Source of the DNA: Brevundimonas sp.
GTDB taxonomy: Bacteria; Pseudomonadota; Alphaproteobacteria; Caulobacterales; Caulobacteraceae
Length of the DNA: 64,000 nt
Assembly (NCBI RefSeq): GCF_027487935.1
Contig: NZ_JAIYCP010000021.1
Location: forward strand, 63,271-127,270
Reading direction: 5' to 3'
Under the pieces are notes generated by a model, which made no database searches, was not told the origin of the DNA, and was given only the letters and a program-made list of their open reading frames with translations. This document shows, one piece after another, positions 2,968 through 24,885 of the stretch. Position numbers and translations under genes: made by a program. Position 1 is the stretch's first letter; each line of letters starts with the position of its first letter.

Positions 2968-3245
2968 CAGGGCTCGACCGGCTCTGAAATGACCCGTGGG
3001 GGAAGCTCCGGAAAGGGCTCATCGCACAGGGCGTCCATCTTCGCCCAGAAGGCCGCCCATTCCTCCGGCGTCCGTGGGCGAGGTTCCTTCGGATCCACGG
3101 GTTCAAGGACGACCGCGTCACCATCCCGACGGATGCGAACCTCCTTGCCCTCGAAACGGAATGCCTTGGGCAGACGAACGGCCTGGCTACCGCCGTGGGT
3201 GAAGATTTTGGCGGTCTCGGCGACGCCACCCTTGGGATCGGCCAT
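2964..3245 (-). CDS. vapB: VapB antitoxin, AbrB/SpoVT type
   Basis: AKIFTHGGSQAVRLPKAFRFEGKEVRIRRDGDAVVLEP swapped-hairpin motif; 4-bp overlap with vapC. Confidence 0.9.
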   Translation of the reverse strand: MADPKGGVAETAKIFTHGGSQAVRLPKAFRFEGKEVRIRRDGDAVVLEPVDPKEPRPRTPEEWAAFWAKMDALCDEPFPELPPRVISEPVEPW

Positions 3246-5307: not shown

Positions 5308-5340
5308 GTCATCCCGGAAACGGCACAGCCGCGGTCCGGG
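5308..5340. repeat. Single CGTC-type REP-like unit between sucA and sucB
   Basis: GTCAT-CCCGGA-aa-CGGCacaGCCG-cgg-TCCGGG; same GTCATCCCGG head as the units at 21.5 and 22.0 kb. Confidence 0.6.
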
Positions 5341-19470: not shown

Positions 19471-19807
19471 ACGCGAGTGAACAGGTCGGCGGCTTGCGGC
19501 TTTGCGGAAGCGAGGGTCGGGAAGGCGCCTTCCCTCCGGAAAATGCGAAAAGCTGTCTTCTCGCCCCTCGGGCCTTGCGGGTTATGCACCGGACCTGGGG
19601 CGGCCGGGCGGAGATGGATCGGATTGTCAAAGACCGGACAGGCGTCGGCACGGGCACGCGGGGTGCCGACGATCAGAGTCTAGCCGGATGCCGGTGGGGG
19701 GATGGCAAATAAATTCTGCGGCCGCGTTTGAGGGGGCGGGAAGGCACGGTCGGGGGTTCGAAAGGGCGGGATGATCGGGGGCGGAAAGGTCGCCTGCCCG
19801 AACCCGG

Positions 19808-20266
19808 CTACATCCTGTGTCGGCGACCGATCAGGGCGCGGAGGCCGAGGGCGACCAGGGCACCGAACAGGCCGACCGACAGGGCCAGCAGGGTCTCGGC
19901 GTAGGACGGCGCGACAACCTCGAACGAGACGGGGCCGACGTGGCGGATGGCCGTCTGGATGTTCATCCAGCCGTACAGGGCGGCGAGCAGGCCGAGGGTC
20001 GCGGAGAGGGTTGCCGCGAGCTTGAGCAGCAGGCCCATGGCACCGGCGGTGCGGCGCGCGAGAAGACCGATCACCCCGAACACCAGCGCGCCGAACAGGA
20101 GCTGCAGGATGAACATCATGACCAGTTTGGCGACCGGGTCCGCGCTCATGAACATCTGCGCGGCAGAGAAGCCCGGCATGTAGCGGCTCATGAGCCAGGC
20201 GCAGGTTCCGGCGGAAGCCGCGAAGGCGACGGCGGCGACGATGAGAAGAGCGGGCGCGCGTTTCAT
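19808..20266 (-). CDS. Shortened MotA/TolQ/ExbB-like membrane protein (copy A)
   Basis: ADPVAKLVM and GLLAALYGWMN...VVAPSYAETL...GLFGALVA resemble TolQ TM1 and TM2-TM3 motifs from memory; cytoplasmic loop absent. Confidence 0.6.
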   Translation of the reverse strand: MKRAPALLIVAAVAFAASAGTCAWLMSRYMPGFSAAQMFMSADPVAKLVMMFILQLLFGALVFGVIGLLARRTAGAMGLLLKLAATLSATLGLLAALYGWMNIQTAIRHVGPVSFEVVAPSYAETLLALSVGLFGALVALGLRALIGRRHRM

Positions 20267-20320
20267 TGGGCGGAGGGTGTGGGGCGGAGGGTCGCGACGT
20301 CAAGCGGGGGCGGGTCGGGA

Positions 20321-21052
20321 TCAGTAGTGCGCGGGCGGCGGCGTGGGCGGTGCCAGCCAGGGCATGGCGAACAGGCCGAACAGGAAGCCGCCGACGTGCC
20401 CTTCCCACGCTACGGAGGGGCCGCCGCCCTCCGCCTGGTTGATGGCGTAGACGAGTCCCACCGTCGCCAGATTGAGCCAGACGACCAGCAGCACCTCGTC
20501 GCGAATCCGCCGCGACCGCAGCGGGATCATGCCCCCGTCAGGACCGATCCGGGCGACCGCGCCCCACAGGCCGAAGATCGCCCCCGAGGCGCCGACCATC
20601 GGGAGCCCCTCCGGGTTGAGGGCGAGGTACAGCGCCGCGCCGGCGAGGGCCGAGCCCACAAAGAGCACCGCGAACCGCCTCCAGCCGGCAGGCCCGACCC
20701 CCAGCCGCACCATCGCCAGCGGCGTCAGCGGCAGCAGGACGCTGGCGTTCAACAGCAGATGGGTCAGCCCGCCATGCGAGACCATGTGCGTGGCCAGGGT
20801 GTACCAACGCCCCTCGGCGAGGGCCGGACCCGAGACGCCCCACGGCGCCGGACCCCCATCGGCCATCTGGGCGACGAACACGGCACCGCAAAGCGCGAGC
20901 AGGACAAAGGCGGGCAGGCCGGCGGCGGAAAACAGCAGCTTCCAGGTGCGGATGTCCCAGATCGGCGGACCGGACCGCAACCGCCCCCGGCGGTCGCGCC
21001 GGCGGGCGAACAGCGGCGGACGGTCAGCGGCAGGCTGGTTCATGGCGGTCAC
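20321..21052 (-). CDS. Rhomboid intramembrane serine protease
   Basis: HMVSHGGLTHLLLN, VGASGAIFG (catalytic Ser), AWEGHVGG (catalytic His). Confidence 0.93.
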   Translation of the reverse strand: MTAMNQPAADRPPLFARRRDRRGRLRSGPPIWDIRTWKLLFSAAGLPAFVLLALCGAVFVAQMADGGPAPWGVSGPALAEGRWYTLATHMVSHGGLTHLLLNASVLLPLTPLAMVRLGVGPAGWRRFAVLFVGSALAGAALYLALNPEGLPMVGASGAIFGLWGAVARIGPDGGMIPLRSRRIRDEVLLVVWLNLATVGLVYAINQAEGGGPSVAWEGHVGGFLFGLFAMPWLAPPTPPPAHY

Positions 21053-21109
21053 TGTGGCTCAGGCGGGCGGGATTGGACAGGGGCAGGCCGTGGAGAGGGC
21101 CTTGAGGCA

Positions 21110-21451
21110 TCAGTCCGGCTCCTCGGGCGGGGTCCAGTTCGGGTCGTTGGTGGGGAACCAGTCGGCGGCGAGGTCGCGCCAGTCGGGGTTTGCTTCCTCG
21201 ATCAGCCTGAGCTTCCAGTCGCGCTTCCATTCCTTGATCTGCTTCTCCCGCCGGATGGCCTCCGTCACCCAGTCAAAGCGCTGGAACCAGACAAGCCCGG
21301 TGCAACCGTACCGTTTGGTGAACCCGTCCAGAATACCGGTTCGGTGCTTCCAGACCCGCGCCGTGAGGTTGGCGGTCATGCCGGTGTAGATCGCGCCGTT
21401 GGGGCGATTGGCCATCATATAGGTCGCGATGAAGGTGCGATGCGTTCCCAT
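21110..21451 (-). CDS. Stand-alone GIY-YIG nuclease family protein
   Basis: TYMMANRPNGAIYTGMT, RVWKH, GFTKRYG, AIRREKQIK, NPDWRDL; 113 aa. Confidence 0.9.
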   Translation of the reverse strand: MGTHRTFIATYMMANRPNGAIYTGMTANLTARVWKHRTGILDGFTKRYGCTGLVWFQRFDWVTEAIRREKQIKEWKRDWKLRLIEEANPDWRDLAADWFPTNDPNWTPPEEPD

Positions 21452-21475
21452 GAAAGCAACCTATACGTTTGTTTT

Positions 21476-21513
21476 CCTTTCGTCATCCGGGCCTTCGCCG
21501 GGATGACGAAAGG
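21476..21513. repeat. CGTC-type REP hairpin
   Basis: CCTTTCGTCATCCGG-gccttcg-CCGGGATGACGAAAGG, near-perfect inverted repeat 24 bp upstream of the GIY-YIG ATG. Confidence 0.85.
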
Positions 21514-21531
21514 GGGGCGGAGAGGTAGTCG

Positions 21532-21963
21532 TCAGAGCTGGCGGGACCTTCGACGGCTGAGCAGGCCGAGACAGAGGAGCGCGCCGGTCAGGCCGACGAG
21601 TAGGACGATAAGGGCCTCGGCGTAGAACTGCGAGTAAATGGCGAAGGGGATCGGCGGGTTCATATTGATCAGCCCGCTCTGTGCGCCCGCCGCGCCGTAA
21701 AGGCCGCCCAGAGCGCCCCAGCCGAAGGCGCCGCCGACGCCGATCCACAGGCGGGGCCGCGCGTCGGCGCGCAGGCTGAGGATCCCGATCGCGGCCGAGA
21801 CGACTGACAGCACCGTGCACGCCATCATCACCAGGTTCAGATGGATCAGTAGGAGCAGCGCGTGGTAGGGCCGCAACTGCGCCAGGGTCATCATCCAGAC
21901 GAGGCCAGCGAGGGCAACAACCCAGGCGATGGCCAGGGCGACAATCAGGATGCGGGTCGTCAT
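21532..21963 (-). CDS. Shortened TolQ/ExbB-like membrane protein (copy B), apparent paralog of 19808-20266
   Basis: Shares LYG...Q...P...YAE.L..L.VGL.GAL..LGL with copy A; about 4 TM segments. Confidence 0.55.
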   Translation of the reverse strand: MTTRILIVALAIAWVVALAGLVWMMTLAQLRPYHALLLLIHLNLVMMACTVLSVVSAAIGILSLRADARPRLWIGVGGAFGWGALGGLYGAAGAQSGLINMNPPIPFAIYSQFYAEALIVLLVGLTGALLCLGLLSRRRSRQL

Positions 21964-22027
21964 GGCCGTGATCCCCTCTGTGGTGATGCAGTACGGTGCG
22001 TCCCGTGCATGAACCTATCCGTCTCGT

Positions 22028-22205
22028 CCCCTTTCGTCATCCCGGGAGCGAGCGCAGCGAGACCCCGGGACCCAGCGGCGCCGAAGGCGACTTGTCCACG
22101 CACGGTGTTTCAGCAGCGGCGCTCCCGACAGGGTCGCGCTCGCGCGCGCCGCTGGGTCCCGGGGTCTGCGCGGCTTCGCCGCTTGCCCCGGGATGACGAA
22201 AGGGG
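22028..22205. repeat. REPIN-like doublet of CGTC REP units
   Basis: Perfect outer 19-bp inverted repeat (22028-22046/22187-22205) and perfect inner 22-bp inverted repeat (22060-22081/22146-22167); abuts clpB stop. Confidence 0.9.
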
Positions 22206-22208
22206 GGG

Positions 22209-24812
<2,604 letters not shown>

Positions 24813-24885
24813 TTGGCTATCCCCTGATGGCGGACTCCGCCGTCGCGCCCTCTGATGCAAGCAACGCGCCGTGCGGCTGCGACTC

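Follow-up and report, generated by a model that had tools for sequence, protein, structure and literature searches.

Small GIY-YIG nuclease genes are paired with families of tagged REP palindromes in Brevundimonas

We analysed a 64,000-nt stretch of DNA from Brevundimonas sp. (GCF_027487935.1, contig NZ_JAIYCP010000021.1, positions 63,271-127,270; hereafter the window), in which a small stand-alone GIY-YIG nuclease gene lies near repetitive extragenic palindromic (REP) sequences that carry a CGTC tag. Nuclease genes of this kind are associated with tagged REPs in the source genome and in its relatives, clade by clade and family by family; genes and repeats are co-distributed, and REP doublets of the source genome are absent from orthologous sites. 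On balance, we lean towards reading the window locus as one copy of a nuclease-plus-repeat system, in which the nuclease would cut its cognate tagged hairpins and host repair would copy or maintain the doublets and the gene cassette. Cleavage of REPs by the nuclease, and a role for it in their spread and upkeep, are suggested by an anatomy like that of REP-associated tyrosine transposases (RAYTs), by a Slx1-like fold and by constraint on the hairpin.

The source genome (2.65 Mb, 67% G+C, 34 contigs) has five small GIY-YIG genes as well as uvrC. When the genome was compared with itself, 233 short repeat islands were found, making up ~1.2% of its DNA. Four of the five small GIY-YIG genes are flanked on each side by an island no more than 100 bp away, an arrangement found for 1.34% of 2020 genes called as open reading frames (ORFs; P ~1.6e-7); the fifth is the window gene, which has a single palindrome beside it and a doublet one gene away. 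Scanning for the pattern 'tag + TCAT + hairpin' gave ~129 units in a few families. Each family in this genome is attached to one nuclease gene or gene pair. Units of the form CGTC-ATCCTCGGGC-TTG (23 units) belong with the gene at C5:17223 (C5b), and those of the form GCTC-ATCCCCGC-GAAA-...-CCCAG (19 units) with the gene at C26:2545 (C26g). The TGTC-ATCCCCGAC family, which has a 14-nt loop, comprises 23 units plus 31 of the related TGTC-ATCCCGG[AC] type and is shared by C1g and C5a, two gene copies on C1 and C5 that are 92% identical. The window gene, C13g, is paired with CGTC-AT(C/T)CCGG... units that end in the tail CCCAGCGGCGC; the copy count proposed by the first-pass annotation of the window gave 20-22 such units, arranged as 10 doublets.

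Units of a family share heads, stems and tails and differ in their loops. Family by family, the tag was CGTC in 23/23, 8/8, 6/6 and 6/6 units, TGTC in 22/23 and 16/16, and GCTC in 17/19. Stems show compensatory changes (ATCCCGG/CCGGGA in some units, ATTCCGG/CCGGAA in others, with many double changes in family A), which argues that the hairpin itself is under constraint. REP units lie at operon junctions and gene ends.

Independence of the association from RAYTs, which the first-pass annotation had suggested after seeing no RAYT in the window, is well supported. A profile search for PF01797 (Y1/RAYT) found no gene in the entire source genome, the completeness of which is 100%, and Y1 transposase genes occur in only one of 19 genomes of the genus. 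The source genome also has no DDE_Tnp_1 gene, and neither of its two rve genes is flanked by tagged REPs.

The link between this GIY-YIG subfamily and CGTC-type REPs proved to be family-specific in the source genome and in 20 relatives. The comparison took in 40 loci, from 20 genomes belonging to the genus and order. Tagged hairpins occurred at 5.2 per kb within 150 bp of the nuclease gene and at 0.12-0.19 per kb more than 300 bp away at the same loci (~30-fold), and 33 of the 40 loci had a tagged hairpin within 300 bp of the gene, so the enrichment that the first-pass annotation had predicted is present. A frequent layout is unit(+) - gene - unit(-) with the heads outward, which places the gene inside a doublet; in G001 and G003 the entire cassette measures 389 bp. 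A fixed spacing between REP head and start codon across clades was also considered and dropped: a head faces the gene in 17/47 loci, and in most clades the heads point outward. On the protein tree, where two of the REP-class labels were set by hand, the four REP classes require three changes, the minimum possible. With 'no REP found' as a fifth class, eight changes are needed against a shuffled mean of 27.3, and none of 200 shuffles was as low. The check on co-phylogeny of nuclease and repeat that had been asked for thereby gave a favourable result. It is very improbable that there is no functional link and that accessory genes and repeats merely co-accumulate in permissive intergenic hotspots. 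The window locus does lie in a variable island downstream of clpB, and other repeat families and a DUF559 nuclease use the same kinds of site, but co-accumulation cannot explain the matching of clade to family, the 30-fold local enrichment over the flanks of the same loci, or the boxing of 4/5 genes on both sides when 1.3% of genes are so placed.

Genes and repeats are also distributed together among genomes. The tail motif of the window subfamily, CCGGRACCCAGCGGCGC, was counted in 31 genomes: it occurs 20 times in the source genome, 25 times in G005 and once in G011, and is absent from the other 28. G005 also holds the nuclease closest to that of the window, at 74% identity. Family A is confined to the genus: genomes with an intact clade-A gene have 9-77 units, and the three congeners that lack any small GIY-YIG gene have 0-2. 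All family-C units found in the genus, bar one in G017, come from genomes that have clade-C genes. The nuclease subfamily itself is patchy, at 0-8 copies per genome, with frequent stop codons and split genes.

Three doublets of the source genome are missing in G009 and G010, whose orthologous operon junctions have spacers of 8-34 bp; empty sites, which the first-pass annotation had proposed to look for in sister strains, thus exist in these relatives. Alignment of filled with empty sites, where possible, showed no target duplication, most clearly at the site-2 operon junction. A 681-bp unit made of a doublet and a nuclease gene is present twice in the source genome at 92% identity, and clade-D genes, to which the window gene belongs, keep the same REP type in three unrelated contexts, next to clpB, next to a carboxyltransferase gene and in a restriction-modification region. 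Across 12 congeners compared, clpB shows 86-98% identity. Four of these relatives, G004, G013, G008 and G006, also have a clade-D GIY-YIG gene downstream of clpB, making five species with the source genome, and G001 has a clade-D-type doublet after clpB with the gene absent; the system can thus also be stably inherited. In the closest relative, G005, nucleotide identity is 93% over the aligned clpB region, and homology ends at 19788 and resumes at 22211. In place of 19789-22210, G005 (L041:876-3785) has a GrpB gene and a 406-aa reverse transcriptase (RVT_1).

The elements of the window locus are listed in Table 1. The GIY-YIG ORF, the upstream hairpin and the 178-bp doublet with its perfect 19- and 22-nt arms are all present as first annotated, and palindrome and doublet enclose exactly one ORF. 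The palindrome, 24 bp from the ATG of the nuclease gene on its upstream side, is not perfect: its 17-nt arms have one mismatch (94% complementary) and stand 4 nt apart. It occupies the position at which orthologues have a full doublet upstream of the gene. The doublet lies 580 bp from the nuclease gene and 4 bp beyond the stop codon of clpB. Its outer arms (22028-22046 / 22187-22205) and inner arms (22060-22081 / 22146-22167) are 19 and 22 nt long, and the hairpin scan recovered both of its units, at 22035-22075 (+) and 22152-22198 (-), each reading CGTC-AT-CCCGGG-(long loop)-CCCGGGA-CCCAGCGGCGC. As single-stranded DNA, the doublet folds into a single long hairpin (-81.7 kcal/mol, z=-9.8). All three units at the locus carry the CGTC tag. 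According to the hairpin scan, palindrome and doublet are the sole tagged REPs of defined families in the window. A solitary unit had also been annotated at 5308-5340; a hairpin is there, as claimed, but it is a doubtful one. Its tag is GGTC, its head GTCATCCCGGA and long loop match the TGTC-ATCCCGGA subfamily, of which it is a weak member, and it has neither the CGTC tag nor the CCCAG tail of the subfamily at the nuclease locus.

Table 1. Features of the nuclease locus and its surroundings, in window coordinates.
Feature	Position	Strand	Remarks
Doubtful solitary REP-like hairpin	5308..5340	+	GGTC-ATCCCGGA ... TCCGGG; TGTC-type subfamily
Variable island downstream of clpB	19789..22210	.	Nuclease, both REP elements, rhomboid gene, two paralogous membrane ORFs
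Small stand-alone GIY-YIG nuclease gene (C13g), 113 aa	21110..21451	-	PF01541; clade D of the genome's five paralogues
Leader, REP head to start codon	21452..21475	-	Carries conserved motif (C/T)ATAGGTTG
Single CGTC-tagged REP palindrome	21476..21513	.	Stem ATCCGGGC, loop CTTC, tag on both sides; sequence CCTTTCGTCATCCGGGC/GCCGGGATGACGAAAGG
143-aa membrane-protein ORF between both REP elements	21532..21963	-	Context, outside the repeat system
Remnant of GIY-YIG leader and first codons	21985..22022	-	Adjoins doublet head; local alignment to 21428-21468
REPIN-like doublet, two inverted CGTC-tagged units, heads outward	22028..22205	.	178 bp; tails CCGGGACCCAGCGGCGC
clpB, conserved anchor gene	22209..24860	-	Listed ORF

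All clade-D genes examined have the leader motif: alignment with clade-D loci of four other genomes shows it in an unchanged position, and in L072 and L073, too, it precedes the ATG. At the window locus there are two copies of the leader junction, one ahead of the nuclease gene and one separating the doublet from the membrane ORF. The second copy aligns to the first with a local score of 26, against 13.6 +/- 2.3 for shuffled sequences (3/2000 shuffles reach 26); the similarity extends into the first codons of the nuclease, and the two copies share the motif ATAGGTT. On the simplest reading of these sequences, the remnant would stem from a local rearrangement within a doublet-leader-nuclease cassette, by which the membrane gene came to lie behind the junction copy. 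The upstream doublet would have been reduced to a single palindrome, and the second REP-head-plus-leader junction would now stand before an unrelated membrane gene. The membrane ORF has no Pfam match. Among 31 genomes searched it is single-copy and found in the source genome alone, with none in the 30 relatives; a paralogue of 30% identity at 19808-20266 is likewise confined to the source genome. One of the two membrane ORFs has a weak match to MotA/ExbB. The first-pass annotation had proposed that paired repeats capture cargo genes. With the enclosed gene unique to the source genome bar its 30%-identical neighbour, this is unsupported as a general rule; REPs are generally intergenic, and no second cargo gene boxed by REPs was seen. 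The leader remnant is the single hint in favour of capture.

These data also bear on whether the REPs are cis-acting parts of the cassette (terminators, insulators, or mRNA-stabilising or expression signals), with solo doublets as its scars and the nuclease at work elsewhere, for example in DNA repair. We consider this improbable. A conserved leader does join REP head to start codon in clade D, the doublet at 22028-22205 retains the remnant of a leader and first codons, and bacterial Slx1-like proteins are predicted to act in repair (PMC1564403). Yet among 28 REP heads scanned genome-wide (GATGAC[GA]A[AT]AG), just two are followed by the leader motif ATAGGTT, both at the window locus, and solo family-A doublets show no significant similarity to the ORF start. 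One gene is matched by 10 doublets of its subfamily, and a genome can have as many as 77 family-A units, so that many cassettes would have to have been lost. A consensus scan of 20900-22400 found no terminator-like or sigma-70-like sites, and we make no claim that the REP head is a promoter. We also considered two ways in which solo doublets might have arisen. Against recent cassette scars, the leader motif follows only the window-locus heads (2/28). Solo doublets may instead be internally deleted cassettes, but what they share significantly with the cassette is the hairpin and a 10-13-nt tail (TTGTCCGCC) alone, and not the ORF start (P 0.002-0.57 per copy).

The 113-aa protein matches Pfam PF01541 (GIY-YIG) as a single domain (E=6e-12; score 46 bits, cut-off 22.6). 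Across 18 aligned homologues, the most distant at 43% identity, Y22, R32, H36, E69 and N88 are invariant and Y11 is at least 90% conserved. The nearest folds to an AlphaFold2 model (mean predicted local distance difference test score, pLDDT, 84) found by Foldseek were 1zg2, the UPF0213 protein BH0048, and Slx1 nuclease domains, with no UvrC or I-TevI structure among the matches; 1zg2 was also the only meaningful sequence match in the PDB. PDB sequence matches to WD40 repeat proteins were disregarded as sums of many sub-threshold stretches, and NCBIfam and PHROGs gave no match. From the modelled fold, the nuclease appears to belong to a Slx1/UPF0213-like branch of the GIY-YIG superfamily, although it has an invariant N88 whereas the Slx1 cluster is said to be without a C-terminal Asn. 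Close homologues are named just 'GIY-YIG nuclease family protein' or 'putative endonuclease', and those that are named are mostly from Brevundimonas. Most lie on contigs of about 1 kb, as expected of a gene wrapped in repeats.

I-TevI and the T4 Seg proteins are free-standing GIY-YIG homing endonucleases that spread by cutting their target and being copied during repair. In the same way, the small GIY-YIG genes may be selfish, homing-type genes to which REP doublets offer safe landing sites, with each clade aimed at one family, while the REPs are made and spread by some other process. Among the remaining rivals this one stands out in particular, and we judge it unlikely. It would fit the many loci in which the gene sits inside a doublet with the heads outward, and the ends of the 389-bp cassette in G001 and G003, whose hairpin and asymmetric tail TTGTCCGCC recur in 106-bp solo doublets. 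Patchy copy number (0-8), frequent pseudogenes and the presence of REPs without the gene in G029, G025 and G010 are consistent with it too. The 113-aa nuclease has no DNA-binding extension, however, as Pfam finds the catalytic domain alone, and its predicted fold is Slx1-like and not I-TevI-like. The clade-D gene is syntenic beside clpB in five species and is therefore stably inherited. Congeners without a small GIY-YIG gene have almost no family-A, C or D REPs, which would be unexpected if the REPs spread alone.

The partnership that we favour would work as follows. A minimal Slx1-like GIY-YIG gene would travel with tagged REPs of its own family (here CGTC-AT-stem ... CCCAGCGGCGC) and would normally be boxed by them. 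The nuclease would recognise the tagged hairpin or cruciform of the cognate family and cut at or near it, after which host recombination and repair would copy or maintain doublets and gene cassette in intergenic locations. Such a partnership would resemble that of RAYTs with their repeats, with a non-covalent nuclease of another kind at its core. Branched DNA is the substrate of the structure-specific endonuclease Slx1, and GIY-YIG enzymes form no covalent DNA intermediate.

Several observations weigh against this proposal. Lacking a covalent intermediate, a GIY-YIG enzyme cannot by itself perform the kind of strand transfer presumed for RAYTs. Foldseek gave modest E-values, 3e-3 to 0.1 (prob 0.96-1.0). 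The relatives are kin and several of the loci are syntenic orthologues, so part of the match between clade and REP class is shared descent. Next to the window nuclease gene there is just one palindrome, and the 3' side of the gene is bare. REPs can also persist where no intact nuclease is present: in G010, 24 family-A units coexist with just a truncated extra GIY-YIG gene, and G018, a complete genome, has 51 mostly identical family-A units and a frameshifted gene. That clade-A gene, split by the frameshift, lies at G018:C1:77452-77914 and is still boxed by REPs. Finally, G029 and G025, from another genus of the order, have related TGTC-ATCCCCGCC REPs (17 and 4 pattern matches) and UvrC as their sole GIY-YIG protein; in these genomes, the repeats either have outlasted their nuclease or are served by a different enzyme.

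REP systems of comparable anatomy, in which REPs and their doublets (REP doublets forming hairpins, REPINs) are served by RAYTs, were reportedly set out by Nunvar in 2010 and by Bertels and Rainey in 2011, and are said to go by the name 'REPtrons'. These systems are discussed in PMC3733652. The Brevundimonas elements are like them in several ways: tagged palindromes form inverted doublets that fold into one long hairpin, they are present in tens of copies, all intergenic, and repeats of one family flank a small nuclease gene that is usually single-copy, with several such pairs per genome. Four REP classes match four nuclease clades, and no target-site duplication appears at the sites compared. 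They differ in that the gene is GIY-YIG (PF01541) and not an HUH/Y1 (IS200/IS605-like) transposase, and that the tags are CGTC, TGTC or GCTC and not GTAG. A covalent tyrosine intermediate is not available to a GIY-YIG enzyme, and any chemistry of mobilisation must therefore differ from that of RAYTs.

The CGTC REPs were defined by Di Nocera, De Gregorio & Rocco in 2013 (PMC3733652), who concluded that they 'apparently lack a dedicated transposase'. As described there, the super-family has an unpaired CGTC (or TGTC/CCTC) at one end of a short stem-loop, with an 8-9 bp stem that begins with A-T pairs, a 4-5-nt loop and a short CCA-like tail; its members are widespread, predominant in Alphaproteobacteria and mostly dimers. 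Our families share the CGTC or TGTC tag followed by a stem starting in AT, the CCA-like tail (CCCAG), the mostly dimeric arrangement, common heterodimers and the occurrence of several families per genome. Unlike the super-family as described, they have a specific gene tied to each family and include a GCTC-tagged family, and many units have loops of 14-24 nt with a nested small hairpin in place of 4-5 nt. At the window locus, the loop of the palindrome is 4 nt and those of the doublet units are 15 and 19 nt, longer than the published range allows.

Among GIY-YIG proteins, Slx1/UPF0213 (BH0048, PDB 1zg2) shares the minimal stand-alone domain and gives the best sequence and fold matches. Bacterial Slx1-like proteins were described as vertically inherited in a study that relays an earlier prediction of a role in DNA repair and makes no connection to repeats (Dunin-Horkawicz 2006, PMC1564403). 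The subfamily analysed here departs from that description in being multi-copy, patchy, often pseudogenised and wrapped in REPs, and in its invariant N88. With homing endonucleases it shares a small, selfish-type GIY-YIG gene that may spread by cut-and-repair copying; it differs from them in having no DNA-binding domain or linker, in being a chromosomal bacterial gene and not one of a phage or intron, and in a predicted fold nearer to Slx1. Miniature inverted-repeat transposable elements and their parent insertion sequences offer another parallel, as short non-coding elements with terminal inverted repeats that share their ends with a longer coding relative. Here, in contrast, the ends are tagged hairpins that are shared with no DDE transposase, and target-site duplications were not seen.

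A literature search found no paper linking GIY-YIG or Slx1-like nucleases to CGTC REPs. The match of each nuclease version to a repeat family of its own makes the small GIY-YIG nuclease a good candidate enzyme for the CGTC REP class that was reported without a dedicated transposase; the defining paper (PMC3733652) ended on the question of which enzyme, if any, makes and moves these repeats. More tentatively, and with slightly less than even confidence, we propose that small Slx1-like GIY-YIG nucleases are the missing dedicated enzymes of CGTC-, TGTC- and GCTC-tagged REPs, in an HUH-independent partnership like that of REPINs and RAYTs that would involve co-evolution of nuclease clade and hairpin and repair-dependent copying. 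If so, partnerships of the REP/REPIN type would have arisen at least twice, each time with an unrelated nuclease; bacterial Slx1-like proteins would gain a first function, and a set of very small nucleases (~100-130 aa), specific for both structure and sequence, would be at hand. Should the nuclease not act on the hairpins, the tight pairing would still need explaining. With four nuclease clades and four cognate hairpin families in one cell, the source genome is an unusually clean test bed.

Other repeats and cassette surroundings were recorded alongside these families. The most frequent 16- to 21-mers of the source genome are tandem heptamer arrays (CCCTAAG, CCACTAG, CCCCAAG and CCCTAAT), sometimes as inverted arrays, with examples at G000:C5:2160-2312 and 3077-3110. 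On C5, a 52-bp direct duplication of a gene's 3' end (G000:C5:2316-2367 and 3111-3162) brackets a doublet-plus-GIY-YIG cassette together with heptamer arrays. That gene lies upstream of the cassette, and its C-terminal residues resemble those of rpoD. The closest relative has just a GC-rich, terminator-looking hairpin at the site. Upstream of a clade-D gene in a metagenome-derived genome, a sequence that by eye resembles the 3' end of a tRNA (L072:2781-2812, reverse complement GGTCGCAGGTTCAAATCCTGAGCCCGCA) abuts the REP doublet. Small endonuclease genes of the DUF559 family (PF04480) form a second nuclease-plus-hairpin pairing: they are wrapped in another hairpin-repeat family, GTCTCCTCCCC...GGGGAGGGGGACC / CCTTCTCCCC...GGGGAGAAGG, at G000:C9:27061-27372 and at L064:3307-4019 (G015). 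In G015, a 515-bp DUF559 unit occupies the same operon junction at which the source genome has a CGTC doublet.

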